Source of the DNA: Patescibacteria group bacterium | GTDB lineage: Bacteria; Patescibacteriota; WWE3; UBA101185; UBA10185 | NCBI GenBank assembly: GCA_018818485.1 | Contig: JAHIRX010000045.1 | Span: 1 to 24,823, forward strand | DNA: 24,823 nucleotides | Direction: 5' to 3' | Shown: positions 1 to 24,823 of the stretch, in pieces | How positions within the stretch are numbered: position 1 is the first letter of the stretch | How the letters are laid out: each line of letters begins with the position of its first letter | Translations under genes and position numbers: made by a program | Notes under the pieces: generated by a model | Databases searched by the model: none | The model's input: the letters and a program-made list of their open reading frames with translations, nothing else | Told to the model about the DNA's origin: nothing

Positions 1-378
1 AACAGTTTGTTCATGAGTAAGACTTGGGATTCTTAAAAACCAACCTGCAAGTACAACAGGTGCTGCAAGATACCCTCCAAAAGATAAGATTACATCAGGT
101 TTTATCTTCATTAGCAGAACTAAAGATTGAAAAACACCATATGGAATCCTTAGAAGTCTTATCAGATTTAAAGTTTTATATAGCTTTCCAGCCTTTAGAT
201 CATAAAAGGGAACACCCAAAGATGTAATTTCTTTGTATTCCAAAGTCTCACTTTTACTTCCCAGAAGAGTGTGTTTATGCCCGAACCAGTGTATACCCAC
301 TTCTGGATCTCTTTGTTTTAGCTCCTCCATCACAGGAAGGGCTGATGTATGATGTCCTCCAGTTATTACTATTTTCAT
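1..378 (-). CDS. murG: MurG glycosyltransferase, N-terminal part (runs off the window start)
   Basis: Not in the ORF track. Translated by hand from the ATG at 378, which overlaps the ftsW stop (ATGA): MKIVITGGHHTSALPV...KAGKL...KPDVILSFGGYLAAPVVLAGWFLRIPSLTHEQTV. It has the TGGH loop, FGGY and HEQ motifs of MurG and follows mraY-ftsW. Confidence 0.9.
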   Translation of the reverse strand, partial: MKIVITGGHHTSALPVMEELKQRDPEVGIHWFGHKHTLLGSKSETLEYKEITSLGVPFYDLKAGKLYKTLNLIRLLRIPYGVFQSLVLLMKIKPDVILSFGGYLAAPVVLAGWFLRIPSLTHEQTV

Positions 379-1505
379 GATTGCTTACTTATGTTAGCTA
401 AAATTCCAAGTCCCATCAAACTAAATACCATTGAAGATCCTCCATATGAGATAAGAGGAATGGGTACTCCAGTAAGTGGAATTATCTTGGTCATTGCAGC
501 TACGTTTATAAAAAATTGAATACCAATCCATGAGGATACTCCTATTCCCAAAAGCTTTCCTAACAAATCAGGAGCATCTCGAGATATTAGAAACCCTAAA
601 TATACAAAATACAAAAAAGCTAAGACTAAAAAAGATGTTCCTATAAATCCAAGTTCTTCTCCGATAATTGCAAATATTGAGTCAGACGCTACCTCGGGAA
701 GATACTGAAATTTTTGTTTTGATTGCCCAAGTCCAACACCTGTGATACCACCAGATCCAAGCGCTACCAGAGCCTGTTTTATATGGTAACTAGAGGTATC
801 TTCATCAGAACCACTTAATAAGGTTATAAGGCGTTGCCGTCTATATGGAGATATAAGTATTACACCCGCTACTAGAAGGGTAACTACTGGAATTAGTATT
901 AAAAGTGGTTTTATTGGAGCCCCAGAAACAAAATATATTATCGTTCCAAGTGCAAATACCATAGCTGCTGTAGACATATTTGGCTGAAGAAGTATTAAAC
1001 CTGATAAAAGTGCAGAGACAATAAAATATACCCAAAATAGTTCCTCTTTCTTTTTTATATTCTTACTAAGTTGAACAGATAGATACAAAATTATGGAAAC
1101 CTTAGCAAGCTCACCTGGTTGAAAACCTAGTACTCCTAAAAAGGGAACCTCCGGAAGAGGGGGTGGGTTTAGATATAACCACCTATTGGCACCATTTATG
1201 CATGGGGCAAAAGCAAAACCATCACTACATGGAAAGAGACCTACTACACCTAGAAATAAAAGAAAAACAATATTTATAATCAGTAGAATATACGCAAACC
1301 CATAAAGTTTGTTGTAATTAAAATTATATAAAAGGAAAAACCCAACAAGTCCAATTATTACCCAACCGAGTTGAAGAGATACAAATTTATATGGATCCCC
1401 ATACAAGTTCTTAGAGGAGATCACTGTAGAATTTGCAATCATTAAAAGACCAAAAACTAAAAATGCAAATATCATGCCTAAAAATACTTTATGTCTTTTA
1501 TCCAT
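375..1505 (-). CDS. ftsW: SEDS family peptidoglycan glycosyltransferase FtsW/RodA
   Basis: Multi-TM protein with motifs GANRW, FQPGELAK, GSGGITGVG, PEVASDSIFAIIGEELG (catalytic Asp kept) and IPLTGVPIPLISYGGSS. Lies between mraY and murG. Confidence 0.93.
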   Translation of the reverse strand: MDKRHKVFLGMIFAFLVFGLLMIANSTVISSKNLYGDPYKFVSLQLGWVIIGLVGFFLLYNFNYNKLYGFAYILLIINIVFLLFLGVVGLFPCSDGFAFAPCINGANRWLYLNPPPLPEVPFLGVLGFQPGELAKVSIILYLSVQLSKNIKKKEELFWVYFIVSALLSGLILLQPNMSTAAMVFALGTIIYFVSGAPIKPLLILIPVVTLLVAGVILISPYRRQRLITLLSGSDEDTSSYHIKQALVALGSGGITGVGLGQSKQKFQYLPEVASDSIFAIIGEELGFIGTSFLVLAFLYFVYLGFLISRDAPDLLGKLLGIGVSSWIGIQFFINVAAMTKIIPLTGVPIPLISYGGSSMVFSLMGLGILANISKQS

Positions 1506-1511
1506 AGGGTT

Positions 1512-2603
1512 TTATAGCAGGGCTACAAACAATCCTGCAAAAGCGAAGAAGATCCCAAAAAGATAAAACCTTAAAGTTATCTTTGTTTCTGGCCAACCTA
1601 ACATTTCAAAATGATGGTGAAGTGGAGCCATCCTAAAAAGTCTTTTTTTAGTCTTTGCATATATTAACTGCTGAAGAGGACTTGAAATACCATCAACTAA
1701 AAACACCGCTCCTATAAATAGAAATGCCACCTCCCTGTGAAGTACAACAGACAATACTGCAAGTATAGCCCCAAGCGCATGGGATCCCACATTTCCCATA
1801 AATATTCTTGCTGGAAAAACATTAAAGTACATAAAAGGTATCAAGGCACCGACGAATGTGGCACAAAAAGATGCTAAAGAGTTAAACTCTAAAACTCTAG
1901 ACAATACCCAAAATGTTATTAAAGAAATAAGAGAAAGTCCTCCCGCTAAACCATCAAGACCATCTGTAAAGGCAACACTATTTAAAATCGTAATAAACAA
2001 AATAAATATAATTATCGGGTATAAAAACCCAACATGAACATCACCAATTAACGGAAACCAGATATAGTCCCAACCAAGTTTAAAATATGCCCAATAAGAC
2101 ACAAATCCAGCAATGATACCCTGAAAAATAAATTTCTGATATGTCTGGATACCACTTGATTCAGAACTACCAACTTTTCGTGAAAACTCTTTAAATGAAT
2201 TAAATATTCTAGAGAAAATACCCGTTCCCTTCGACCTCTTCTTAAAAAGTCCTGCTAGGTGATACTCAAGAAAACCAGGCAAGCCTGACTTCTTGTATAC
2301 CTTTGTGAAATCTTCAAGTATTCCCAAAAAACCAGCTAGAGTTGCAACAAAAAGTGGAAAGAGCGTCTGAGTTCTAGAACGATTGAAAATAAAACTAACT
2401 AAAGCTACTGAAAAAACAAAAACTAAACCTCCCATAGTGGGTGTTCCTTCTTTCCTTCTATGAGTCTTAGGCGAATCTCCTCTTACACTTTCTCCAAGAT
2501 TAAACTTATAAACAAAGTTGATCCAAAAAGGGTACAGAACCAAAGAGATAATAAAACCTAAAAATAAATATATTAAATCTAGCAGTAATCCTACTGTTCC
2601 CAT
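1512..2603 (-). CDS. mraY: MraY phospho-MurNAc-pentapeptide transferase homologue with atypical active-site motifs
   Basis: Motifs KEGTPTMGG, TDGLDGLAGG, FNVFPARIFMGNVGS and FRMAPLHHHFEMLGWPE. The DD motif reads ED and FMGD reads FMGN (see findings). Confidence 0.88.
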   Translation of the reverse strand: MGTVGLLLDLIYLFLGFIISLVLYPFWINFVYKFNLGESVRGDSPKTHRRKEGTPTMGGLVFVFSVALVSFIFNRSRTQTLFPLFVATLAGFLGILEDFTKVYKKSGLPGFLEYHLAGLFKKRSKGTGIFSRIFNSFKEFSRKVGSSESSGIQTYQKFIFQGIIAGFVSYWAYFKLGWDYIWFPLIGDVHVGFLYPIIIFILFITILNSVAFTDGLDGLAGGLSLISLITFWVLSRVLEFNSLASFCATFVGALIPFMYFNVFPARIFMGNVGSHALGAILAVLSVVLHREVAFLFIGAVFLVDGISSPLQQLIYAKTKKRLFRMAPLHHHFEMLGWPETKITLRFYLFGIFFAFAGLFVALL

Positions 2604-3913
2604 ATTTTTGCTCCTAAAGACTTAAGTTTGTCTGAAAAACCAGCCAAGTACTTTTCAATATGTTCCATCCCTATAATCTCACTTTTTCCCTCTGCACACA
2701 AAGCAGCTAAAACAAGCACAGGACCATTTATGAAACTACCAATATTTAGCTTTTCTCCTTTTAATCTTGTGGGTCCCTCGATCTTTACAACACTTTTTGG
2801 TTCACCCTGCACCTCAAAATCATAGGAGTCTTCACTTATTACTGGTATTAAGTCAACTTCTGTGGGTTTAATATTACTAATCTTTGCACCCATTCTGTTT
2901 AGATCAATAACATAACTAAATCTATTGGTATATACGGTGTCATGAACTAAGCTCTCACCACCAGCTTGAGTTAATATAATAGTAGCTAAAGATTGCCAGT
3001 CTGGAACAAAACCAGGAGTAGGGGCAATCTCCACCTGAGCTGGTATCAACTCTTCCTCATGCCTCCATACTTTAAGTTCATTTTCACAAATCTCAAATTT
3101 TGCATCAATCTTATTTAAAAAGTTAACAAATGGAATTAAAGTCTCCTTTTTTATTCCTTTTATCGTTACATTCCCATTTGTCAGTATCGCAGCAGACGCA
3201 AAAATAGCTGCCTCTGTTTTATCTCCTAAAACACTAAATTTAGCGTCTTTAAATATATTTGTGCCAATAACTTGTATCTTTCTCGGTTCAACTCTTTCCA
3301 CGTTTCCTCCCATTTGGTTAACCATTAGTATCAAATCCTCAATCTCTGCTTCCTCAGATGCATTAGCAATAATGGTTTCTCCGTCTAAAAAGAGAGAGCA
3401 AAGTATAGCGTTGTCTGTTCCCATGTGAGTAGATGTTTTAAATACAACTGTTGAAGAGGCCATATTCTCTGCGTTTAAATGATAGTATCTATCGTCTTCT
3501 TTAACTTCTACTCCAAGAGTTTTCCATGTATCTACCAACCTATTTATCGGTCCTGCAACATAAATTTCTGAGTTAAACTTAGGAATAGAGGCCTTTCCAA
3601 ATCTAAAAAGAAGAGGGCCAGAAAGCAGAACCGCTGTTCTTAGTCTTGATCCAAGTTCATACCTAATTTCACTACTTGAAAGTCCTGCCCCATTAAGTAT
3701 TAAGGTGTCTCCTGCCCATTCTGCACTCCCCCCTAAACTTCTAATAATTTCAAGATCATCTTCAATTACTTTGATTCTAGGTACATTTTCCAAAACCACG
3801 TCTTGGTTTGAAAACATAGCAGCGACAATCAGTTTTAAAGATGAGTTTTTTGATCCCGAAACAGTAATATCCCCTGTTAGTGGGGTTGATCCTTCAATAA
3901 AGGTTGATGACAT
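2591..3913 (-). CDS. murA: MurA-like enolpyruvyl transferase-fold protein with a degenerate PEP site
   Basis: Colinear with MurA: GDITVSGSKNS, NVPRI, GPLLFRFG, IIANASEEAEI, APTPGFVPDWQ, VYTNRF, DLNRMGAKI, KLKSLGAKI. Start moved from 3967 to the ATG at 3913, 2 nt after the secG stop, which matches the MurA N-terminus. Confidence 0.8.
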   Translation of the reverse strand: MSSTFIEGSTPLTGDITVSGSKNSSLKLIVAAMFSNQDVVLENVPRIKVIEDDLEIIRSLGGSAEWAGDTLILNGAGLSSSEIRYELGSRLRTAVLLSGPLLFRFGKASIPKFNSEIYVAGPINRLVDTWKTLGVEVKEDDRYYHLNAENMASSTVVFKTSTHMGTDNAILCSLFLDGETIIANASEEAEIEDLILMVNQMGGNVERVEPRKIQVIGTNIFKDAKFSVLGDKTEAAIFASAAILTNGNVTIKGIKKETLIPFVNFLNKIDAKFEICENELKVWRHEEELIPAQVEIAPTPGFVPDWQSLATIILTQAGGESLVHDTVYTNRFSYVIDLNRMGAKISNIKPTEVDLIPVISEDSYDFEVQGEPKSVVKIEGPTRLKGEKLNIGSFINGPVLVLAALCAEGKSEIIGMEHIEKYLAGFSDKLKSLGAKIWEQ

Positions 3914-3915
3914 AA

Positions 3916-4140
3916 TTATGATAAAAGAAGAATAAATATAGAATTGGCTACAAGTAAAACGCCGCAAATAATTGTAAGAATAAATACTATCTTTTCTACA
4001 CCCCTTAATGATCTATATGCTGAAAAGGAACTCTTTAGACCAGAGGTTAAACCCGTGCCTTTTGATTGAATTAAAGTTAGAAGAATCAAAAGAACAGCAA
4101 TAACTATCTGAAATGTTTTAGCTACTGTAAGTAAGTTCAT
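3916..4140 (-). CDS. secG: Preprotein translocase subunit SecG
   Basis: 74 aa with two TM segments and the SecG pattern LIQSKGTGL...RSLRGVEKIVFILT. ATGA overlap with the upstream gene. Confidence 0.8.
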   Translation of the reverse strand: MNLLTVAKTFQIVIAVLLILLTLIQSKGTGLTSGLKSSFSAYRSLRGVEKIVFILTIICGVLLVANSIFILLLS

Positions 4141-4547
4141 CTTTTAGTACAAAGGCTTTCTAAAAATGTATACGTTAAAGAAGTTACCAGAGAAGAAAAT
4201 ACCATAGCCTGAAGACTTGTCAAATCATATGAAGGAAAAGAAAAGCCTAAAATCACAAGGCCAGAAACAGTAGATGAGTGAATACTAAAACCTGGAACAA
4301 AAAGGGTAGACACATAAATTACTATAACAGTCATTGCAAAGGTTAAAAAAACAAAGGGAAGACCCCTTGTTGGTAGAGAAACTATGGAAATTAGTGGTTT
4401 CAAAAAGAAATAAAGTAGGGAAAGTCCTAAAACCAGCAGCACAACCGATTTAAAACTATCAGACCCGTAATCAAAAGCACCAATAACTTGTCTGGATGCC
4501 TCTAGTGCAAGTGCCGTAAAGATAAGTGTCCTGAGAATCTTTTTCAT
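4137..4547 (-). CDS. 4-TM membrane protein, YvlD-like 'phage holin family' (superfamily IV)
   Basis: Hydrophobic, 136 aa, with the family pattern LKPLISIVSLPTRGL...LFVPGFSI. No phage genes nearby. Confidence 0.62.
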   Translation of the reverse strand: MKKILRTLIFTALALEASRQVIGAFDYGSDSFKSVVLLVLGLSLLYFFLKPLISIVSLPTRGLPFVFLTFAMTVIVIYVSTLFVPGFSIHSSTVSGLVILGFSFPSYDLTSLQAMVFSSLVTSLTYTFLESLCTKR

Positions 4548-4553
4548 GGGTTA

Positions 4554-4559
4554 ATTATA
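4554..4559 (-). promoter_or_regulatory. Perfect -10 box TATAAT 6 nt upstream of the ATG at 4547 (candidate leaderless promoter of the holin-secG-mur operon)
   Basis: Minus strand reads TATAAT-taaccc-ATG. The box includes the uvrC stop codon. No SD present. Confidence 0.55.
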
Positions 4560-5895
4560 CCCCAAGAGCCTTCTTTCTTAGAAGATGGTGGTATCTTTGA
4601 GCAAACCTGTGTGCTTCATCTCTAAGTTGTATTAATAGCCTTAAACCTTCGTTATCTTTTGATAGTTTGACTTCTCTGAACACATCCCCATCCTTAAAGA
4701 TAAGTATTTCTTCCTTCTTAGCCAAGCCTACAACTGGGACATAAATATCAAGATCTTTCATAGCCTCAAGTGCGGCGGATACCTGAGGTTTTCCTCCATC
4801 CAGAACCACAAGATCAGAAACTTTCCAACCATCCTTCTTCCTTTTAAATCTTCTATACAAAACCTCATACATCATGGCAAAATCGTCTGGTTTTGATTTG
4901 AACTTAACTTTAAATCTTTTGTATTCCTCTTTATTTATCTTTCCTTCTGTTGCCACAACCATAGAACCAGTAGCCTCTTTTCCTGAAACATTTGAGATAT
5001 CATAGCACTCGATTCTTTGAGGGATGCATCCGACAATAGGCAAGGCCTTTTTTATCTCCACCAAAGCTTTTTTACTCAGGTCTTCTAAAAGATAGGGATT
5101 ATCAATATAACTTTCTGGACTTCTAAAATCTGTTTGAAGATAATAAAAATTTTGAAGAAGATCTCTAAATTTAGCTGCTTTTTCATAATCCTTTTCCTTG
5201 GAAGCTTTCTCCATCTCCTTTTTTACACTATTAATCAATTTTGAAGTACCTCCTGATAAAAGCTTTTTTATTTTATTAATATTATCTTTGTATTCTTTTA
5301 GATTTTCTTCTGAATAACTTACACAGGGAGCTAAACACACATTTATATGACCAAATAAGCATGGGTTTTCTATCTTGTGATAACGTGCAAACTTAGTAGT
5401 AGAACAATCTCTAAACATGAATATTCTTCTGATAACTCTCATAACTTGTTTTACTACACTTCCGTTTGGAAAAGGACCAAAAATTACATCTTTTGGTAAT
5501 AGTTGGGTTTTTCTAGCTGTTGTAACTAGAGAAACACTAACTTTTTTACCATCAAGAATAACTTTTTCATTTCTAATAACGATATAGATATGTGACTTAT
5601 CGTCTTTTAAAACTATATTGTATTTTGGTCTATACCTTTTTATTAATTCTGCTTCTAGAATGAGGGCTTCAAACTCAGATTCTACATCTATATGTTCAAT
5701 GTCGTTAATTTTAGAAACTAATGCAAAAGTTTTAGATGAATCATCTAAACTTAAACTAAAGTATGATCCCACCCGACTTCTAAGGTCTTTAGCTTTACCA
5801 ACATACAAAACTCTCCCGGTTTTATTTTTAAAAATATATACGCCGGGAAGTCTTGGTAAACCTTTAACAATTTCTTTTAAACTTTCCTTTTCCAC
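4555..5895 (-). CDS. uvrC: Excinuclease ABC subunit C, lacking the C-terminal HhH domain
   Basis: GIY-YIG domain (GVYIF...LYVGKAKDLRSRV...LEAELI...PKYN), UVR coiled coil (KDYEKAAKFRD) and RNase H-like domain (ECYDISN, LDGGKPQ, RDEAHRFA). GTG start. Confidence 0.95.
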   Translation of the reverse strand: MEKESLKEIVKGLPRLPGVYIFKNKTGRVLYVGKAKDLRSRVGSYFSLSLDDSSKTFALVSKINDIEHIDVESEFEALILEAELIKRYRPKYNIVLKDDKSHIYIVIRNEKVILDGKKVSVSLVTTARKTQLLPKDVIFGPFPNGSVVKQVMRVIRRIFMFRDCSTTKFARYHKIENPCLFGHINVCLAPCVSYSEENLKEYKDNINKIKKLLSGGTSKLINSVKKEMEKASKEKDYEKAAKFRDLLQNFYYLQTDFRSPESYIDNPYLLEDLSKKALVEIKKALPIVGCIPQRIECYDISNVSGKEATGSMVVATEGKINKEEYKRFKVKFKSKPDDFAMMYEVLYRRFKRKKDGWKVSDLVVLDGGKPQVSAALEAMKDLDIYVPVVGLAKKEEILIFKDGDVFREVKLSKDNEGLRLLIQLRDEAHRFAQRYHHLLRKKALGV

Positions 5896-11916: not shown

Positions 11917-11945
11917 ATTATACTATAAGGTAAATATTAAGTCAA
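11917..11945 (-). promoter_or_regulatory. Near-consensus sigma70 promoter driving the leader and orphan gene
   Basis: TTGACT (11940-11945), 17 bp, TATAAT (11917-11922). The -35 overlaps the PBP stop codon. Confidence 0.7.
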
Positions 11946-14209
11946 TCGTCATCATCTTTACCCCCATCTTCATCTTCCTCTTTTTCAATACACAAAGTCT
12001 CAGGAACAAATGTTCCTTTTATGAAAACTTCAGAAACACCACATTTCTCATCATATTTTACAAAAATATCTCCAAGCTTCTCATAAACTTCATTTGGCTT
12101 TCCATCTAAAACTTCTGTCATTATTTTATTCCATATAGGCGCAGCTCCTGTTAAACCTGATGCGAGGTATCTATTCATAGGAGTACCATCGTTATTTCCA
12201 ACCCAAACACCTACTACATAAGATGGGGTATACCCCAGAGTCCAATTATCCTTTATATTATCTGTGGTTCCTGTTTTTACAGCAACCTTATAACCAGGGA
12301 TCACAAGAGAACTACCAGAACCAAAGGCTGGTGTTCTTGCCACATTATCAGAAAGAATGTGCCATATTAAATAAGAAACCTCACTACTCAAAACCTGACT
12401 ATCTTCTCTTCTATCTTTATATATCTCGTATCCTTTTGAGTCTTTCACGCTTAAGATCGGGGTTGTTTCTTTATATATCCCATTTCTAGATAAAGTCCCG
12501 AACACATTTGTGTGATCCAACAACCTTACCTCCTTACCTCCTAAGGTAACTGATAGACCATAAGAACCATCTATTTTCCAGTTTGAAAGCCCCATTTTAT
12601 GTCCAAGGTCTACAATATTATCTGGACCTACACTACTAGCGACCTTTACAGCCGGAACATTGTAAGAATTAGCTAAGGCTTGGCGCACGGTTACTTTTCC
12701 ATGAAACTTACCATCGTAATTTACTGGAGTATATGGTTTTTGACCTTCTACTTTATAGGTAATTGCAGAATCATCAATTATTGTGGCTGGCGTATAGTTT
12801 CTGCTTAAAGCTAGTGCGTATGTGACAGGTTTTATAGATGATCCAGGTTGCCTATAACCTGTTACCACATCAAAGGCTCCCCAACCCTCTTGAAAATAAT
12901 CAACTGACCCAACATAAGCTAATATTTCTGAGTTTTTTGAATCTAAAACTACCGCGGCTCCATTTGAAAAACCGAGATATGAGTTTTTCCCTACCTCTTC
13001 TTTTACAATCTCTTGAACCTTATCATGAAGTTCTAAATCTAGAGTAGTAGTAATCGTTAAATCTCCTAACTCAACAAATCTCTTACCATATTCTTTCTCA
13101 AGTAACCCTCTAACATAGATTACAAAATGAGGAGCTCTAATAAACTCTACTTGGTCAATAAAATTAAGTTCCATATCAAATGCTTCATCTACTTCCTCTT
13201 TTGAGATATATCTTGTTTCTACCATTCTATCCAGAACATATCTTTGCCTTTCTTTTGCTTTTTCAAGATCAGTAATTGGCGAGTAGCTTGTGGGTGATGA
13301 AGGAAGTCCTGCTAATAAGGTTGATTCTGCAATATTTAATTCCCAGACGTTTTTCCCGAAATATTTTTGTGCTGCTGATTGAATACCCCACGAAGTACCC
13401 CCATAAGGCACGTTGTTTAAATACATTTCTAGGATTTGTGACTTAGAGTATTTAACTTCTACAAGTAGTGCTAAAACTGCTTCTTTTATCTTCCTCGAAA
13501 CAGTTCTCTCAGGAGAAAGGAGTACATTTTTAATTAACTGCTGAGTAATTGTAGATCCCCCTTGTAAATTTCCACCAAAAAAATTGTTCTTTGCTGCCCT
13601 GATAACACTATCTAAACGAATTCCCCAGTGACTATAAAACTTATCATCCTCAACAGCAATCGTAGATTGAATAACATGAAGTGGAACTTCATCCAGACTT
13701 ATGGGATTGTATTTTTTATCTACATATATTTCATATAGTAGCTTTCCATTTCTATCCAATATTCTCGTAGAGCTTTGATTTGCTTTTGTAACAAGTGAGC
13801 CAGGTGTTGGTAGTTCTCTAAACCATCTATAAATTTCAAGAGGGGTGAATATAAAAACTACACTAATAAGTGCTCCTACAAAGTATGGCTTTAAATTTAA
13901 TATCTTAGAAAGTCTCGTCTTAAGATTACCTAGAAACACTTTCCATTTCTTCTTAATAGAAGGAATTATTTTTCTAATGTTTTTAAACCTGTCTACTTTC
14001 TTTCTGGGTACTATTTTAGTCTTTTTTTTGATCTTCTTGGACTTCTTACCCTTAATTTTCTTATTCTTTAGGGCCTTAACTGATGTAGAGATTTCTTTTT
14101 TAACAGCTTTGTAGATTTTTGGAGTGATTACAAGAATCTTCTCAAATGGAAAAATAATAATAAATCCAATATTCTTTATAAGTTTTGATACATTATTAAT
14201 AAAAGGCAT
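11942..14209 (-). CDS. Class A bifunctional penicillin-binding protein (PBP1A family)
   Basis: Glycosyltransferase motifs AVEDDKFYSHWGI, GGSTITQQLIKN, RKIKE and ILEMYLN. Transpeptidase motifs SSIK, SYN and KTGT. One TM helix after a long basic N-terminus. Confidence 0.95.
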   Translation of the reverse strand: MPFINNVSKLIKNIGFIIIFPFEKILVITPKIYKAVKKEISTSVKALKNKKIKGKKSKKIKKKTKIVPRKKVDRFKNIRKIIPSIKKKWKVFLGNLKTRLSKILNLKPYFVGALISVVFIFTPLEIYRWFRELPTPGSLVTKANQSSTRILDRNGKLLYEIYVDKKYNPISLDEVPLHVIQSTIAVEDDKFYSHWGIRLDSVIRAAKNNFFGGNLQGGSTITQQLIKNVLLSPERTVSRKIKEAVLALLVEVKYSKSQILEMYLNNVPYGGTSWGIQSAAQKYFGKNVWELNIAESTLLAGLPSSPTSYSPITDLEKAKERQRYVLDRMVETRYISKEEVDEAFDMELNFIDQVEFIRAPHFVIYVRGLLEKEYGKRFVELGDLTITTTLDLELHDKVQEIVKEEVGKNSYLGFSNGAAVVLDSKNSEILAYVGSVDYFQEGWGAFDVVTGYRQPGSSIKPVTYALALSRNYTPATIIDDSAITYKVEGQKPYTPVNYDGKFHGKVTVRQALANSYNVPAVKVASSVGPDNIVDLGHKMGLSNWKIDGSYGLSVTLGGKEVRLLDHTNVFGTLSRNGIYKETTPILSVKDSKGYEIYKDRREDSQVLSSEVSYLIWHILSDNVARTPAFGSGSSLVIPGYKVAVKTGTTDNIKDNWTLGYTPSYVVGVWVGNNDGTPMNRYLASGLTGAAPIWNKIMTEVLDGKPNEVYEKLGDIFVKYDEKCGVSEVFIKGTFVPETLCIEKEEDEDGGKDDDD

Positions 14210-17050: not shown

Positions 17051-18358
17051 ATGGGAAACCTGATTCTACCGATAATTGAATACCTTGAAAAGCTCTCACT
17101 ACAAGTTCCACTTGAGGTATTTACCGTTGTTGGTACATTTTTAGAAGAGGTAATTGCACCCATTCCGTCCCCTTTTGTATTAACAACTGCAGGTAGTATT
17201 ACTGCAGCTCAAAATAACCCTCTATCATATATTTTCTATATCGCTTTACTTGGTGCTATAAGTAAAACCCTAGGTGGTTGGCTCCTTTATACCGTTTCGG
17301 ACAAGGCAGAAGATTTCTTGTTTTCAAAATTTGGTAAATTCATCGGAGTAACTCAAGGAGAGATAGAAAAGATTGGTAAATACCTAAACGGTGGTTGGAG
17401 AGATAAGGTTGTTTTGTTTGTTCTAAGAGCTCTCCCTGTTGCACCAAGTTCTCCTATCTCAATAACATGTGGTCTTATAAAACTAAACATTAAAACATTC
17501 TTAGTAACTACATTTTTAGGAACCATCATTCGTAACCTTTGTTACCTTTATCTTGGATACACAGGTCTTTCAGCTTCTAAGTCTGTGGTCTCAGGTCTAG
17601 AAACAGGAGAAAGCATTGGTCAGATTGTTGTAATGGTAGGTATTACTGTTCTACTTGCATGGGGATTTACAAAACGCAAGAAAATGTTTGGGGGAGAGGA
17701 AAACACTAAAATAACCGAAGCTAAAGATCTTTTAAAATACAAAAAGGTGGATCCTCTTCCCAAAGAAGAGTCAGAAGAGTTTTCAACTCTATATATCTTT
17801 AGACACGGAGAAACTGAAGATAACGCTCAATTCATTTTTAGTGGTTGGAGAGAGGCAAAACTTACTGAGAACGGTAAAAAACAGGCACTTGTACTTGCGG
17901 GTAAACTTAAAGATAAAAAGATTGATATGTTAATTTCTTCCCCCCAGATAAGAGCGATCGACACTTTAAAAATTGCACTATCAAAAAATAGAGAGGCAAT
18001 AAATCTAGAGGTTAAGATGGACGAAAGAATAAAAGAAAGATCCTATGGGGACTACACAGGAAAAAGTAAATTAGATATCCAACTAGAGGATCCGGAAAAA
18101 CTTAAAAAGATAAGAAGAAGTTGGGATTTTATACCTCCAAATGGTGAAAGTATTGAGATGGTTTACAAAAGAGTTGCTGAATTTTGTGATGAACTAATTC
18201 CTCAAATCAAAGGAAAGAACATCAATGTTGCTATTTCCTGTCATGGAAACTCCATTAGATGTTTTAGAAAATATTTTGAAGGATTAAGTAATGAGCAAAC
18301 TGCAAAAGTTGAAACTCCTCTAGGACAAGATTATGCTGCCTACACTATTAAGGATTAG
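17051..18358 (+). CDS. Fusion of a DedA/VTT membrane domain and a 2,3-BPG-dependent phosphoglycerate mutase (histidine phosphatase) domain
   Basis: N-terminal half: FLEEVIAPIPSPFVLTTAG, LFVLRALP and FLVTTFLG (DedA pattern). C-terminal half: FRHGET, FSGW, ERSYGDYTG, IRRSWDFIPPNGES and CHGNSIR (dPGM pattern). ATG 17051 preferred over TTG 17045. Confidence 0.85.
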   Translation: MGNLILPIIEYLEKLSLQVPLEVFTVVGTFLEEVIAPIPSPFVLTTAGSITAAQNNPLSYIFYIALLGAISKTLGGWLLYTVSDKAEDFLFSKFGKFIGVTQGEIEKIGKYLNGGWRDKVVLFVLRALPVAPSSPISITCGLIKLNIKTFLVTTFLGTIIRNLCYLYLGYTGLSASKSVVSGLETGESIGQIVVMVGITVLLAWGFTKRKKMFGGEENTKITEAKDLLKYKKVDPLPKEESEEFSTLYIFRHGETEDNAQFIFSGWREAKLTENGKKQALVLAGKLKDKKIDMLISSPQIRAIDTLKIALSKNREAINLEVKMDERIKERSYGDYTGKSKLDIQLEDPEKLKKIRRSWDFIPPNGESIEMVYKRVAEFCDELIPQIKGKNINVAISCHGNSIRCFRKYFEGLSNEQTAKVETPLGQDYAAYTIKD

Positions 18359-19575
18359 TGGTCCTGGAATACTTCTAAGATTCTATTGTATTTTGCCACT
18401 CTTTCGCCTCTTACAGGTGCTCCAGACTTTATGAAGTCTGCACTAACTGCTAAGGCTAGATCTGAAATGAAAGAATCTACGTTATCACCACTCCTGTGAG
18501 AAACAATAACATTCATTTTTGCTTTTCTTGCGAGTTTAACGAACTCAAAGGTTTCGGTTAAAGTGCCTACCTGGTTTGGTTTTACTATCACAGCATTAGC
18601 AAGCTTTTTCTTTATAGCTTCTGCCAAAAGAGCTGGATTTGTAACTACTAAATCATCTGCAACAACCATTAACCTATCTGAGTAGCTTTTATAAAAATCT
18701 GACCATCCTTTATGATCTTTTTCATAAAATGGATCTTCCATATATATCAACTCATATTTTGTAAGCATTCTATTGTAGTATTCCATTAATTCTTCTGTAG
18801 TAAGCTCAATATTTTCTTCGTTTATATCGTATTTTCCATCCTTATAAAAAGATCCAGCAGCTATATCCATTCCTAAAAACACATCATTTCCCACGTCATA
18901 CTGAACATTTGCTGCTTTTTTAATAAAATCTAATGCTACATCACAACAAAGACCTTGAGGTTCAAAACCTCCTTCATCTCCAACTGCTGTTTCAAAGTCT
19001 TCATCCACTAATAGTTCCTCTAAATTATGATAAATATTTACTCCCATTTCTAAAGCCCTATCAAAAGGAGTATTTAGTGCAGGAATAACCATGAACTCTT
19101 GAAATGAAAGTTTATTTTGGGCATGTTTTCCACCATTTAAAACATTAAATATTGGAGTTGGGTATGTGATATCACCATTCTTTTCTTTCCCTGAGTAAAG
19201 CTCTGAAAGATACTCATAAAGCTCTATTTCCTCGGAATCCGCAGCAGCTTTTGCTACTGCCAGAGAAACTGAAAGAATGCTATTTCCACCAAGTCTAGAC
19301 TTATTTGGAGTTCCGTCCATTTCAACCAATATTTTATCTATTTCTTTTTGATCGAAAGGATCTTTACCCACTAACACATCTGAAATGGTGTTATTAACAA
19401 TATCAATAGCCTTGTCTACTTCTACATCAACAGCTTCATTTTCACCTTCAGAGGCGCCATTAGGAACCGGTTGAATACCTACAGAGTCATCATCTAATAC
19501 TACTTTTGTTTCAATAGTCCATTGTCCCCGAGAGTTTAAGATCTTTCTTGCTGAAATAGTTTCAATCTTTGCCAC
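18355..19575 (-). CDS. eno: Enolase
   Basis: Motifs NGGKHA, FQEFM, GDEGGF, MDIA, EDP, ADDL, VKPNQ, SHRSG, IKSG and ERVAKYN, with catalytic residues present. GTG start with SD-like AAGGGGTGAT overlapping the ppsA stop. Confidence 0.96.
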   Translation of the reverse strand: MAKIETISARKILNSRGQWTIETKVVLDDDSVGIQPVPNGASEGENEAVDVEVDKAIDIVNNTISDVLVGKDPFDQKEIDKILVEMDGTPNKSRLGGNSILSVSLAVAKAAADSEEIELYEYLSELYSGKEKNGDITYPTPIFNVLNGGKHAQNKLSFQEFMVIPALNTPFDRALEMGVNIYHNLEELLVDEDFETAVGDEGGFEPQGLCCDVALDFIKKAANVQYDVGNDVFLGMDIAAGSFYKDGKYDINEENIELTTEELMEYYNRMLTKYELIYMEDPFYEKDHKGWSDFYKSYSDRLMVVADDLVVTNPALLAEAIKKKLANAVIVKPNQVGTLTETFEFVKLARKAKMNVIVSHRSGDNVDSFISDLALAVSADFIKSGAPVRGERVAKYNRILEVFQDH

Positions 19576-19581
19576 AGCATA

Positions 19582-21861
19582 TCACCCCTTTTTCTTTGCT
19601 TTCCCTCTACCTAGAATTTTCTTCTCTGCTTCATATACAATTTCTCTGGTTTTTTCTATTACATCAGGGCTTACTGAAACTGAAGTTACCCCCCAATCAA
19701 CAAGCATTTCAACAAGTTTAGGATAAACTGATGGGGCCTGGCCACAAATTGAACATCTTATCTTTCTTCTTCTACATGTAGTAGCTATCTTTTCTAAAGA
19801 TTGAAGTACTGCGGGATCCATTTCACTGTATACATGGGCTACTCTTTCATTATCTCTATCAACTCCTAGCGTTAGCATTGTTAAATCATTTGAGCCGATA
19901 GAAACACCATCGATTCCCTCATCAATAAACTCATCAAGTAAAATAACATTTGAAGGAATCTCAACCATCATCCAAAATTCAAAACTACCACTCCTTCTTA
20001 AACCATTTGCTGACACTATTTTCTTAACTTCTCTTAACTCATCAATTGTTCTAACAAAGGGCATCATCACCCAAAGATTTTTAAATCCCATTTTGTTTCT
20101 TACCTTTTTTATTGCAGCGATTTCCATCTCGAATACGTCATCATCTTTTATATATCTAGAAACGCCTCTAAAACCTATCATTGGGTTTGGTTCTTCCTTC
20201 TCAAACTCAGCACCACCCTTAAGATTTGCGTATTCGTTTGATTTAAAATCATTAAATCTGTAAACAACAGGTCTTGGGTTAAATGCTTCTGCAAACTTTG
20301 CCATTCCTTCTGCAAGCTTATCGATAAACTCCTTCTTTTTTCCATCCTTAATAAACTTTCTAGGGTGAGTCCCAATATTTGCAATAATAAATTCTGCTCT
20401 TAAAAGACCAATTCCATCTACATTTCTTTGAGCCATATCAAATGCAAGTTCTGGTTCTGCAAGATTTAGATATATTTTTGTAGCTGTTTTAATCTTTGAT
20501 GTATCAATCTTTGGTTTTTCACTTTCTTTTATCTCTACAGTAATGTCTTTTTCATAAACCTTACCTCTTTCCCCATCTACAGTGATAACCTCATTATTTG
20601 AAAGGATTTGTGTAGCATTCGTGGTACCTACAACGGCAGGAACACCAAGCTCTCTACTAACAATGGCAGCATGAGAGGTTCTTCCACCAAGATCGGTAAC
20701 AATAGCAGCAGCCCTCTTCATAGCAGGAACATAATCAGGGTTAGTCATCTCTGCAACCAAGATATCCCCTTCCTTTACTTTATTTATTTCACTTGCTTTT
20801 CCAACAATTTGAACTTTTCCAGATGCTACACCTGGAGAAGCTGATAACCCTTCCAAAATAGCTTTTGCCTTACTCTTAGGATCAATCTTGAATTCTTCTT
20901 CTGTTTTAGTAACTAGTGTTGTAACAGGCCTTGTCTGAACAATGTATATTTTTTTATTTTCAATTCCCCATTCAATATCCTGTGGGTGTTTGTAATGGTC
21001 TTCTAGTTTCATCCCAATCTTTGCAAGTTCCACTATCTGTTTGTTGGTAAGTTTTTGTTTCTTTTGATATTTCTTGGAAACTGGTACTTTACCAGCTTTG
21101 GTAAATTGCCAGGTTTGTCTAACAATCTGTCTTGTTGTTATCTTTTTACTCTCTTTATTTACTATGTACTGATCAGGGGTAAGCTCCCCAGAAACAACAG
21201 GCTGACCAAGTCCAAAGGCTGCTTCAACAGATACCTCTCCACGATTATTAGTAACAGGATTTACGGTAAACATAACCCCAGAAAAGTCAGACTGAATCAT
21301 AAGCTGTATAGGAACGGCAATCCCAACTTGTAAATGTGAAAACTTATTTGTAGCTCTATAATAAGTAGCTCTAGCTGTAAAGAGGGATGACCAGCACTTC
21401 TGCACATGTTTTACTACCTCTTTATAACCTTTGACATTAAGATGGGTATCTTGCTGACCTGCAAAGGAAGCTTCAGGAAGATCCTCAGCTGTAGCAGATG
21501 ATCTTACAGCAACGTATTTGTCGTTTTCCCCACTAAGTTTGTGGTAGGCCTCCTTTATCTCTTCTGCCAATTCTTTAGGCATATCAGCAGCTAATATTGC
21601 TGTTCTTATTTTCTTTGCAGCTGATTGGAGTTCCTTTGAATCTTCATAGTCAAGACCTTGAAGCTCAGTAAGTATTTTTTTCTTTAGGGACGTGGATTTA
21701 AGAAAATCATAGTAGGCTTTAGCTGTAACTACAAAACCATCAGGAACGGGAATTTTCGCATTAATCATTTCTCCAAGGTTAGCTCCTTTTCCACCTACCA
21801 AGGGAATATCATATCTTCTAATATCCTTAAATCTAAGAATGTGGGCAGATTTCTTGCTCAT
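19582..21861 (-). CDS. ppsA: Phosphoenolpyruvate synthase (pyruvate, water dikinase)
   Basis: Motifs VGGKGANLGEM, AVRSSATAEDLPEASFAGQQ, phospho-His GGRTSHAAIVSRELG, GLLRAEF, EEPNPMIGFRG, MVEIPSN, SIGSNDL and ICGQAPS. Confidence 0.97.
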   Translation of the reverse strand: MSKKSAHILRFKDIRRYDIPLVGGKGANLGEMINAKIPVPDGFVVTAKAYYDFLKSTSLKKKILTELQGLDYEDSKELQSAAKKIRTAILAADMPKELAEEIKEAYHKLSGENDKYVAVRSSATAEDLPEASFAGQQDTHLNVKGYKEVVKHVQKCWSSLFTARATYYRATNKFSHLQVGIAVPIQLMIQSDFSGVMFTVNPVTNNRGEVSVEAAFGLGQPVVSGELTPDQYIVNKESKKITTRQIVRQTWQFTKAGKVPVSKKYQKKQKLTNKQIVELAKIGMKLEDHYKHPQDIEWGIENKKIYIVQTRPVTTLVTKTEEEFKIDPKSKAKAILEGLSASPGVASGKVQIVGKASEINKVKEGDILVAEMTNPDYVPAMKRAAAIVTDLGGRTSHAAIVSRELGVPAVVGTTNATQILSNNEVITVDGERGKVYEKDITVEIKESEKPKIDTSKIKTATKIYLNLAEPELAFDMAQRNVDGIGLLRAEFIIANIGTHPRKFIKDGKKKEFIDKLAEGMAKFAEAFNPRPVVYRFNDFKSNEYANLKGGAEFEKEEPNPMIGFRGVSRYIKDDDVFEMEIAAIKKVRNKMGFKNLWVMMPFVRTIDELREVKKIVSANGLRRSGSFEFWMMVEIPSNVILLDEFIDEGIDGVSIGSNDLTMLTLGVDRDNERVAHVYSEMDPAVLQSLEKIATTCRRRKIRCSICGQAPSVYPKLVEMLVDWGVTSVSVSPDVIEKTREIVYEAEKKILGRGKAKKKG

Positions 21862-23196: not shown

Positions 23197-24228
23197 ATGG
23201 TTAAAAAACTAATCGTGATTTTAGTTTTAATAGGAATAATTGGGATTAGTCTTTATATTTATGTTGATTCCCAGAACCTTAGAAATGAGGTTTTTGAAAG
23301 TAACTACAATTTAAAAGTATTAAAAAAGGGTCCTATTGAAGAATTAAAAGAGGAGTCAGTTTTTAATGGTAAAGATAGGCTTAATGTTCTTCTTATTGGT
23401 AGGGATACTAGTGGGGTTAGAAGATCAAACGGACAGGGTGGTTTTAATACTGATGTTATGATTTTAATTTCTGCTGATATTGTATCTAATCGAATTTTAT
23501 TTACCTCCGTTCCTAGAGACTTGTGGATTAATGGCAACAAAATTAACGCCTTAAATATACTTTATGGAGAAGATACACTTGTAGATGCTTTTGAAAAAAT
23601 TACAGGACAGGTAGTTGATGGAGTAGTCTCTATTGATTTTGATGGTTTTATCTGGCTTGTTGATGCTTTTGGTGGAGTTCCTGTTGAAGTTCAGAGAAGT
23701 TTTTCTGACTATACTTTCCCTGTCTTTGATGACTCAGGTATAACAACAATTTCATTTACTGAGGGTATAGAAACAATGGATGGCATGAGGGCACTAACTT
23801 TTGCTAGAAGCAGAAAAGGAACTAATGGCGAGGGAAGTGACTTAATGAGGGCAAAAAGGCAACATTTAATACTTCAGGGAATGGCCAATGCTTTAGAACA
23901 ACCTGAAAGTATATTTTCTTTAGATAATATTCCTGGGTTTTATGATCTACTTACCCAACATATGGAAACTACTCTTACACTTGGGGATACTTATTACCTT
24001 TGGGATTTTTATAAAGACAGAAATATATACTCTGCAGAATCTTTTGTTATAGGAGATGAGTATGTTTATCACCCTGGAATGTATCCAGAAAGCTCATACA
24101 CTGCTTGGGTGTTTGTTCCAAGAGATGGCGATTTTAGTAGACTTCACAGTGATATAGATGCAAAGCTAAATGGAACATTTGTAACTGAAGTAGATCCACC
24201 TGTTGCTGGTATTAAATCAGATCTCTAA
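23197..24228 (+). CDS. LytR-CpsA-Psr (LCP) family glycopolymer transferase
   Basis: N-terminal TM helix and motifs LLIGRD, NTDVMILI, SVPRDLW, KINA, DFDGF...VDAFGGV, ALTFARSR and SDLMRAKRQ. Confidence 0.93.
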   Translation: MVKKLIVILVLIGIIGISLYIYVDSQNLRNEVFESNYNLKVLKKGPIEELKEESVFNGKDRLNVLLIGRDTSGVRRSNGQGGFNTDVMILISADIVSNRILFTSVPRDLWINGNKINALNILYGEDTLVDAFEKITGQVVDGVVSIDFDGFIWLVDAFGGVPVEVQRSFSDYTFPVFDDSGITTISFTEGIETMDGMRALTFARSRKGTNGEGSDLMRAKRQHLILQGMANALEQPESIFSLDNIPGFYDLLTQHMETTLTLGDTYYLWDFYKDRNIYSAESFVIGDEYVYHPGMYPESSYTAWVFVPRDGDFSRLHSDIDAKLNGTFVTEVDPPVAGIKSDL

Positions 24229-24823
24229 CCCTTATCTGGTACTAACCCATAAAACTTGACTAGTTCTTTGGCAATATCCATCCAAAGAGGGGCAGCGGTT
24301 TCAGCAGCATAAACAGACTCTTGAGGCTCTTCTAACTTAACAATCATACTAAATTCTTTCGAACCTGCTAAAAACCCAACAAATGTGGCGTTTGTTCTAT
24401 TTGGAGAATACTTCCCCCCTTCTGGAATCTGTGCCGTACCTGTTTTTCCAGCTACTCTATAATTGTTTAACATAAAATATTTGGCCTCTCCTCCTTCTGC
24501 TGCTTTTTCCAGAAGATCAACCATAGTATCCGCTGTTTCTTTTGAGATCACTCTTCTAACATTTTTAGTCGGAATATCCGTTTCCCAATCACTACTAATA
24601 ATCCTATCAATCACCCTTGGCTCTAATAGATAACCTCCGTTTGCAATAACATTAAAGGCATTTAATAGTTGAAGAGGAGTAGTTGAAACACCCTGACCAA
24701 AAGCAGCTGTGGCTAAATCAATATCTGTCCACTCATCAACATCTCTTAGTATTCCTGCATCCTCACCTTCAAGATCAATACTAGTTTTTGAACCTAATCC
24801 AAAGTTTTTAAAATATGTATAAA
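24225..24823 (-). CDS. Class B penicillin-binding protein (FtsI/PBP2 type), C-terminal part of the transpeptidase domain
   Basis: The frame stays open to the window edge: YTYFKNFGLGSKTSIDLEGE...ATAAFGQGVSTTPLQLLNAFNVIANGG...VAGKTGTAQ...AAETAAP. The track start at 24614 is an internal codon. Confidence 0.92.
   Translation of the reverse strand, partial: YTYFKNFGLGSKTSIDLEGEDAGILRDVDEWTDIDLATAAFGQGVSTTPLQLLNAFNVIANGGYLLEPRVIDRIISSDWETDIPTKNVRRVISKETADTMVDLLEKAAEGGEAKYFMLNNYRVAGKTGTAQIPEGGKYSPNRTNATFVGFLAGSKEFSMIVKLEEPQESVYAAETAAPLWMDIAKELVKFYGLVPDKG

Follow-up and report, generated by a model that had tools for sequence, protein, structure and literature searches.

How should a cell-wall operon be read when two consecutive precursor enzymes in it, a MurA homologue and an MraY homologue, both carry changes at residues regarded as essential? 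The question is raised by contig C80 (GenBank JAHIRX010000045.1) of a Patescibacteria group bacterium of the WWE3 lineage (assembly GCA_018818485.1). The whole contig, 24,823 nucleotides, was analysed and is here called the window, and the two homologues the window MurA and the window MraY; it is one of 86 contigs of a 564,558-bp genome that is 84.6% complete. With moderate confidence we favor the reading that the cytoplasmic half of peptidoglycan synthesis has been lost, that the window MurA is a pseudoenzyme, that the window MraY is active, and that the wall precursor comes from outside the cell. A sequence-only reading of the window had earlier offered changed lipid I/II chemistry, scavenging, or a role as scaffold or regulator as options for both enzymes; our results support a scaffold or pseudoenzyme together with scavenging in the case of MurA, and point to an MraY that is altered but probably not inactive.

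The MurA homologue and its lid loop

The window MurA shares its family, its two-domain fold and its location in the division and cell-wall (dcw) cluster with canonical MurA (E. coli, E. cloacae, C. difficile; PDB 1UAE, 6Q0A; TIGR01072). Its AlphaFold2 model is confident (pLDDT 94.3, pTM 0.92), with confidence dropping only in the lid-loop block. Foldseek aligned the model to the MurA structures 6q0a and 1uae at TM 0.90/0.95 and a root-mean-square deviation of 2.1 Å; the best match was C. difficile MurA with UDP-N-acetylmuramic acid (UDP-MurNAc) bound.

The active-site cysteine of MurA lies in a flexible lid loop and is the target of fosfomycin (PMC9975281). Residues of the window protein were mapped by alignment to solved structures, and the mapping was checked against canonical relatives and codons. 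Retained are K22, N23, R91 (R92 here), D305 and R331, of which the first four would be consistent with binding of a UDP-sugar. Neither the catalytic Cys nor the Asp of the lid-loop motif GG(C/D)xIGxR is present: Cys115 is replaced by E116, Arg120 by G121 and Asp123 by N124, and the loop reads PKFNSEIYVAG. In the phosphoenolpyruvate (PEP) site, Asp369 is replaced by S393, Leu370 by F394, Arg371 by I395 and Arg397 by K421, so that, compared with canonical MurA, four PEP-site or loop residues (Arg120, Asp369, Arg371, Arg397) are changed. The score on the TIGR01072 equivalog profile was 322.9, below the cut-off of 392.7, while that on the NF006873 subfamily profile was 320.5, above the cut-off of 297. 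Structure alignment and codons thus bear out the earlier claim that this homologue lacks residues regarded as essential. Judged from model and alignment, the fold appears intact and the chemistry does not.

Two further features were considered. An insert at residues 347–377 (31 residues, versus 7 in C. difficile MurA) was rejected as a marker of new function, many canonical relatives sharing inserts of the same size. Nor is PEP supply the reason for the loss of the PEP site, because the window also carries genes for an enolase and a PEP synthase/PPDK-type enzyme (18355–21861).

The former catalytic loop drifts. We aligned the window MurA with its 120 closest database homologues, nearly all of them without a name or labelled WWE3/Patescibacteria. 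In the resulting 121 rows, the column of Cys115 held T 27, R 15, S 14, A 11, E 9, P 8 and others. When the homologues were pooled with genome-derived copies and split by the presence of GG(C/D) in the loop, 133 sequences were degenerate and nine canonical. Mean pairwise identity over loop positions 113–121 was 0.18 in the degenerate set versus 0.56 over the rest of the protein, and 0.79 versus 0.56 in the canonical set; this loop is the most variable nine-residue segment of the degenerate-set protein. The columns conserved at ≥90% in the canonical set and at <60% in the degenerate set were only 114–116 (GGC), 118, 121 (Arg120), 165, 237 and 281, and about 45 further columns were at ≥90% in both.

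Selection was measured as the ratio of nonsynonymous to synonymous substitution rates (dN/dS) in a sister genus of the same degenerate clade, because a metagenome scan found no locus closer than 62% identity. Six loci with a degenerate copy were used; most pairs were saturated at synonymous sites, and the values are those of the two least saturated pairs. They were 0.031 and 0.021 for murA, 0.025 and 0.022 for mraY, 0.031 and 0.031 for ftsW, and 0.081 and 0.056 for uvrC. Selection on murA and mraY, for which the sequence-only reading had suggested this measure, is therefore strongly purifying (0.02–0.03) in the sister genus and not relaxed. The co-occurrence of substitutions that it looked for among relatives was also seen: the same states recur in the nearest homologues of both proteins, so the changes are not a sequencing slip.

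The degenerate form is widespread. Among 145 aligned full-length sequences representing clusters at 50% identity, 27 (the window protein and 26 clusters) are without GG(C/D). These clusters sit among the closest matches, and the more distant ones also lack K22, N23 or D305. In a quick tree with SH-aLRT support, of which only well-supported groups were used, the window copy falls into a degenerate clade with copies from relatives G002, G004, G005, G011, G015 and G017. Outside it are a separate degenerate clade (G019–21) and the canonical copies of G007, G008 and G012, which indicates that the catalytic loop was lost more than once. The clade-A MurA homologue of G003 (C6:32904-36677) is split into two open reading frames (ORFs) of 180 and 266 amino acids (aa); the gene appears to have become a true pseudogene in this one lineage, which also carries the second MurA type described below.

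We interpret the window MurA as a putative maintained pseudoenzyme, rather than a pseudogene or a protein in which a new active site has become fixed, because its catalytic residues are lost and its loop drifts while the remainder is under purifying selection. It would no longer transfer enolpyruvate. It should not be filed as a UDP-N-acetylglucosamine (UDP-GlcNAc) 1-carboxyvinyltransferase, despite its MurA-family fold and sequence, because the defining catalytic features fail.

Missing cytoplasmic steps and retained membrane steps

A further difference from canonical MurA lies in the genome around the window protein, in which neither MurB nor MurC-F was detected. That genome holds a single EPSP-synthase-family gene, and its sole Mur-ligase domain is that of a MurT-like gene beside a GatD-like gene. 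Searching its six-frame ORFs by phmmer with MurB, MurC, MurD, MurE, MurF and Ddl of relative G007 and with the second WWE3 MurA type, we found nothing beyond the MurT-like gene. The same queries found no murB-F, ddl or second murA among the six-frame ORFs of G017, a single N-free contig of 897,158 bp in which degenerate murA, mraY, ftsW, murG, ftsQ and ftsA are contiguous. For MurB, TIGR00179 was not found in the window genome nor in 20 of 30 relatives, and phmmer with the MurB of G007 and of G023 gave no match in the six-frame ORFs of the window genome or of gap-free G017. Canonical murA and murB-F were thus found neither elsewhere in this genome nor in G017. Against its own proposal the sequence-only reading had set the case of canonical copies elsewhere combined with relaxed selection; we found no such copies, and strong purifying selection in the sister genus.

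Gene order points the same way. In G007, a member of the same family, the order is uvrC, a four-transmembrane gene, secG, murA, mraY, ftsW, murD, murE, murC, murF, murG, ftsQ, ftsA and ftsZ, and its murA is a canonical one, scoring 404 bits on TIGR01072. The window has ftsW and murG joined directly by an ATGA overlap, so the murD-E-C-F block is absent from its syntenic place. Among the 30 relatives, MurB was present in 10 genomes and a high-scoring Ddl in six, always with a Cys-bearing MurA; both occurred only where at least three Mur ligases or a Cys-bearing MurA were present. Twelve relatives that are 89–99% complete combine a degenerate MurA with at most two Mur-ligase matches and have no second MurA.

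The second MurA lineage of WWE3 is 22–28% identical to the window protein (L030:1309-2622 in G023, L038:854-2215 in G015, L036:804-2204 in G016). It keeps the GGC loop (IPxPGGCVLGKRSI), scores above the NF006873 cut-off and adjoins murB in G023.

Other genes around the pathway were surveyed. The MurT-like protein (379 aa) and GatD-like amidotransferase (249 aa) are encoded on contig C46 (L005:143-2028), adjoining dnaA; neither comes near the equivalog cut-offs for lipid II isoglutaminyl synthase, and the MurT-like gene also occurs in pathway-complete G007. Between one and four lower-scoring Ddl-like ATP-grasp paralogues (340–380 aa) occur in many relatives without the Mur steps (G003–G005, G008, G010, G014, G017, G019–21, G029); they could be peptide ligases of another kind, and the window genome has none. 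GlmU was not found above cut-off in G000, G007, G011, G015 or G017. UDP-GlcNAc may come from other enzymes or from outside, and the absence of GlmU is not specific to Mur-less genomes, since pathway-complete G007 is also without a match. Known MurNAc salvage and LD-transpeptidation were rejected as ways of filling the gap: MurQ was not found in the five genomes searched, and YkuD (LD-transpeptidase) was present only in G017 and G007 of five genomes, with no enrichment.

The later steps are retained. All 31 genomes have penicillin-binding protein (PBP) transpeptidase domains and 30 of the 31 have MurJ, the window genome being part of both counts; UppS is present. Within the window lie genes for a class A PBP and a LytR-CpsA-Psr (LCP) protein, and part of a gene for a second PBP. 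The LCP protein is encoded at 23197–24228; this family usually attaches glycopolymers to peptidoglycan, and its presence is further indirect evidence for a wall containing muramic acid. From lipid I onward the lineage has the full set of steps; none of the known earlier ones remains.

MraY stands at the boundary. The window protein is the best-conserved gene product of the cluster and scores above cut-off on TIGR00445 (223.5, cut-off 192.05) and on the PF10555 signature (25.8, cut-off 20.1). Besides equivalog score and signature, it shares with solved MraY (A. aeolicus 4J72, E. coli 8G01) the second Asp and the K of DDxxK, DGLDG, HHH and adjacency to ftsW-murG. It differs at three places. The DD pair of DDxxK (E. 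coli D115-D116) has become E97-D98, a conservative Glu standing for the first Asp (B. subtilis D98), and the motif reads E97-D98-F-T-K101. In the NxxNxxDGxDG motif (B. subtilis N171, D174), A211 replaces the Asn equivalent to N171, with D214 and D217 kept. N271 replaces the Asp of MGDxGS (E. coli D267, A. aeolicus D265), giving MGN271VGSH. The PxHHHxE motif is kept as APLHHHFE (H329–331). Compared with the solved structures there is also a new His or Tyr after GS and a 47-residue cytoplasmic insert, which AlphaFold2 models at low confidence as two cytoplasmic helices (108–120 and 129–144).

In B. subtilis MraY, catalytic importance is reported for D98, D99, K116, N171, D174, D231, H289 and H290, and D265 of the A. 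aeolicus enzyme adjoins Mg2+ (PMC5039524). The changes at these places in the window type are nonetheless fixed rather than drifting: among 121 homologues E97 is found in 117, A211 in 115 and N271 in 120, and D98, K101, D214, D217 and HHH are invariant. Three MraY types occur among the relatives. The window type has Asn271 in most genomes and Asp in G008, G009, G012 and G013, and Glu97 always; since Glu97 is present even in the Asp-bearing copies, the Glu and Ala changes seem to have preceded that of the Asp and may have made it replaceable.

Apart from a WecA-like gene, G007, G022 and G024 have no MraY-like gene but the Asn271 type; each of these relatives comes from a different family and has murB, at least four Mur ligases and ddl. 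In G007 the Asn271 gene lies between canonical murA and ftsW-murD-murE on one 544-kb contig. Because the variant is fixed and is the sole MraY of these pathway-complete relatives, the window MraY is probably functional, with a remodelled metal and phosphate site, and would still form lipid I. The earlier reading of MraY as catalytically altered thus holds for the residue changes, and is probably wrong if inactivity was meant. When a second mraY or wecA, which that reading had proposed to look for, was sought in G007, G022 and G024, only the WecA-like GT4 protein appeared and no further MraY.

This GT4 protein (WecA/MraY superfamily, ∼500 aa; C47:211-1713 in the window genome, L004:211-1713) is conserved in all relatives checked and is followed by a response-regulator gene. 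Its motifs include DD and NGIDG, with HLHH where MraY has HHH, and it is another family member without the Asp that in MraY lies near Mg2+. As a substitute MraY it was rejected, having no HHH and WGFGA in place of MGDxGS.

Layout of the locus

We read the stretch as the head of the dcw operon: possibly uvrC, then a four-transmembrane gene, secG, degenerate murA, mraY, ftsW and murG, with ftsQ-ftsA on an adjoining contig (Table 1). The remainder of murG was found at C34:3-758, with ftsQ and ftsA after it, by phmmer of the G007 MurG, FtsQ and FtsA against six-frame ORFs of the window genome; since murG is split between the two contig ends, C80 and C34 are genome neighbours.

Table 1. Wall-related and adjoining features of the window
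Feature	Coordinates	Strand	Basis or remark
uvrC	4555..5895	minus	Pfam GIY-YIG, UVR, UvrC_RNaseH_dom; same order in G007
136-aa membrane protein, four predicted transmembrane segments, PF04020 (Phage_holin_4_2)	4137..4547	minus	30.7 bits, cut-off 28.8
secG	3916..4140	minus	PF03840 and TIGR00810, both above cut-off
Window MurA: MurA-fold protein, 440 aa, without catalytic loop or PEP-site arginines, probable pseudoenzyme	2591..3913	minus	PF00275, 161 bits
Former catalytic lid loop of the window MurA, codons 111–125, PKFNSEIYVAGPINR	3539..3583	minus	Alignment to MurA structures and codon reading
C-terminal PEP-site positions S393, F394, I395, K421 of the window MurA	2651..2737	minus	Alignment and codon reading
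mraY, subfamily variant, 363 aa	1512..2603	minus	TIGR00445, PF00953, PF10555
MraY cytoplasmic insert, ∼47 residues (104–150), after the (E/D)DxxK motif	2154..2294	minus	Alignment to MraY structures
MraY altered active-site span	1791..2315	minus	E97 = 2313–2315, A211 = 1971–1973, N271 = 1791–1793
ftsW (SEDS glycan polymerase), catalytic motifs intact	375..1505	minus	PF01098, 279 bits
murG, N-terminal 126 codons, cut by contig end	1..378	minus	PF03033, TIGR01133
Class A PBP (transglycosylase and transpeptidase)	11942..14209	minus	Context: periplasmic wall steps retained
PBP transpeptidase domain, C-terminal part, cut by window end	24225..24821	minus	Context

ORF coordinates and direct reading of the junctions agree with the chain of overlaps and gaps described earlier, and all reading frames of the operon are intact, as had been claimed. 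ATGA overlaps join the four-transmembrane gene to secG (4137–4140) and ftsW to murG (375–378). A 2-nt gap (3914–3915; the junction reads TAATTATG) separates secG from murA, which starts with the ATG at 3913 and whose 440-aa product agrees with homologue lengths; murA and mraY overlap by 13 nt (2591–2603), and mraY and ftsW are 6 nt apart (1506–1511). From the end of uvrC to the four-transmembrane gene there are 7 nt on the same strand, and the transcription unit may begin at uvrC. Promoter and terminator signals did not exceed those of shuffled sequence, so the operon boundaries rest on gene spacing.

A head formed by secG and the four-transmembrane gene had seemed atypical; it proved to be conserved synteny in the family (G007 and G017), and G007 has an ORF of equal size at the matching position. 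FtsW and the visible part of MurG look competent, as had been judged. Alignment of FtsW to RodA/FtsW structures shows the catalytic Asp of SD(S)IF (here SDSIF) retained, together with QPGELAK, and the MurG N-terminus has GGH. FtsW residues ∼90–119 form an extra extracytoplasmic segment with two cysteines (CSDGFAFAPC...PPPLPEVPF); the counterpart in E. coli RodA is short and gapped.

A wall without its own precursor?

Our favored reading can be put as a sequence of events. The genes murB, murC, murD, murE, murF and ddl, along with any catalytic murA, would have been lost, and UppS, MraY, MurG, the MurT/GatD-like pair, MurJ, FtsW, class A and class B PBPs and the LCP protein kept. Without MurB as a user of its product, MurA would have been freed from constraint on the lid loop (GGCxIGxR) and, in this genus, at three more PEP-site residues. 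Because the loop is free and yet the protein is under strong purifying selection, MurA may now have a non-catalytic role, as a binding protein or scaffold at the MraY/MurG/FtsW machinery, possibly with a UDP-sugar ligand held. The loss of K22, N23 and D305 in distant degenerate relatives favors a structural role across the family. The MraY variant would form lipid I from the UDP-MurNAc-peptide of a host or neighbour. The precursor is thus probably acquired from outside the cell, and since the organism is an episymbiotic member of the candidate phyla radiation (CPR), import from a host would be the simplest source.

Tannerella forsythia appears to be the closest analogue at the level of the organism. 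It is a MurNAc auxotroph without murA and murB that salvages MurNAc from its neighbours and keeps murC-F and known salvage enzymes. The likeness lies in a wall made without the first committed steps, from material of other bacteria, the source here being our inference. In the window genome, however, murB-F and ddl are all missing and MurQ was not found, so that a later and larger intermediate would be needed.

For MurA, a non-catalytic role is plausible because the active protein has suitable properties: Enterococcus faecium MurAA interacts measurably with MurG and co-localises at the septum, and MurA binds UDP-MurNAc very tightly in a 'dormant complex' (PMC9975281; PDB 3SWD, 8D84). A MurA fold can thus bind MurG and hold UDP-MurNAc, the roles we propose here. 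Those proteins are active enzymes with extra properties, whereas the window MurA could have retained only the non-catalytic part.

Several points weigh against this reading. Both the lost activity of MurA and the kept activity of MraY are deduced from sequence. The window genome is 84.6% complete in 86 contigs, and the absence of the Mur genes leans on the missing syntenic block and on relatives. G015, G016 and G018 have a Cys-bearing second MurA and no detected murB, which a simple story leaves unexplained. MurQ was not found in the five genomes searched. We found no importer or salvage route for UDP-MurNAc-peptide here and, to our knowledge, none has been described. The dN/dS values come from the sister genus and not from that of the window, with most pairs saturated at synonymous sites. 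By the standard of the B. subtilis residues (PMC5039524), the window MraY should be impaired.

A bolder version of the reading is speculative, and we would not expect it to hold in full. It supposes that a large part of WWE3 builds a cross-linked wall without a cytoplasmic precursor of its own, that a whole UDP-MurNAc-peptide or a re-activated muropeptide is imported from the host, and that the degenerate MurA acts as the cytoplasmic receptor passing this precursor to an MraY with a Glu/Asn metal site.

Of the alternatives, we consider it unlikely that both proteins are inactive relics or pure scaffolds, with no lipid I made and the wall genes serving division scaffolding or another polymer. 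Three of the eight catalytically important B. subtilis MraY residues are changed, including the Asp near Mg2+, and the enzymes making the substrate were not found, as this would predict. The E/A/N state of MraY is, however, fixed at a dN/dS of ∼0.02, and the same type is the sole MraY of three relatives with complete Mur pathways (G007, G022, G024). Moreover, the retention of MurG, MurJ, FtsW, transpeptidase PBPs and the MurT/GatD-like pair is sensible only if a lipid II with a stem peptide exists.

We also doubt that the window MurA has been neo-functionalised, catalysing another reaction or using another substrate, either in a changed lipid I/II chemistry or in an unknown de novo route replacing MurB-F. 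Strong purifying selection, the retention of K22, N23, R91, D305 and R331, and the 13-nt overlap tying murA to mraY would all fit such an enzyme. Yet the degenerate clade shows no new conserved polar or catalytic residue, the constraints gained being S35, G68, L102, K112, E139, F175, S186, K232, I251 and F265. Its former catalytic loop is the most variable segment and has not been re-fixed, more distant degenerate clusters lose K22, N23 and D305 as well, and candidate partner enzymes were not found.

An artefact of assembly or binning, with canonical murA, murB-F and ddl on unrecovered DNA and the window MurA a redundant paralogue, is very improbable. The incomplete, 86-contig genome leaves room for it, and several relatives do carry a degenerate copy together with the second, Cys-bearing MurA type. 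But ftsW overlaps murG exactly where G007 has murD-E-C-F; the single-contig, N-free G017 has the same arrangement and, by six-frame searches with same-family queries, no murB-F, ddl or second murA; and the 12 relatives of 89–99% completeness show the same combination.

The natural Cys115Asp MurA of Mycobacterium and Chlamydia is fosfomycin-insensitive and active, and it combines a conserved Asp with retained arginines and a complete pathway. The window MurA resembles it in having no catalytic Cys, but its position drifts freely and its pathway is gone. That Glu116 still serves as a general acid for enolpyruvyl transfer, in the manner of these active, fosfomycin-resistant Asp115 variants and at a position also studied in engineered C115D and C116D structures, is therefore barely credible: the acidic residue of the window protein is not conserved in the 121-row alignment (E 9), Arg120, Asp369, Arg371 and Arg397 are changed too, and no MurB was found to use the product.

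Loss of the cytoplasmic precursor steps remains the reading we favor, and it would change how these genomes are described. In a literature search whose coverage was not exhaustive, we found no published account of WWE3 that describes a MurA pseudoenzyme or the loss of Mur ligases; according to reviews, peptidoglycan synthesis is retained in CPR bacteria, and public records name homologues of the window MurA 'UDP-N-acetylglucosamine 1-carboxyvinyltransferase'. Should this MurA be dead and murB-F be absent, many WWE3 genomes are credited in metabolic reconstructions with more autonomy than they have, and the wall would be a point of host dependence, with a bearing on the cultivation of these organisms. 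The conserved natural MraY with Asn at the Asp near Mg2+ and Glu at the proposed catalytic Asp offers a ready test of the MraY mechanism, and of the universality of that antibiotic target site. The long retention of a MurA-fold pseudoenzyme (in at least 26 other clusters at 50% identity) would indicate that MurA has another, non-catalytic role in the wall machinery, one that may exist in ordinary bacteria too.

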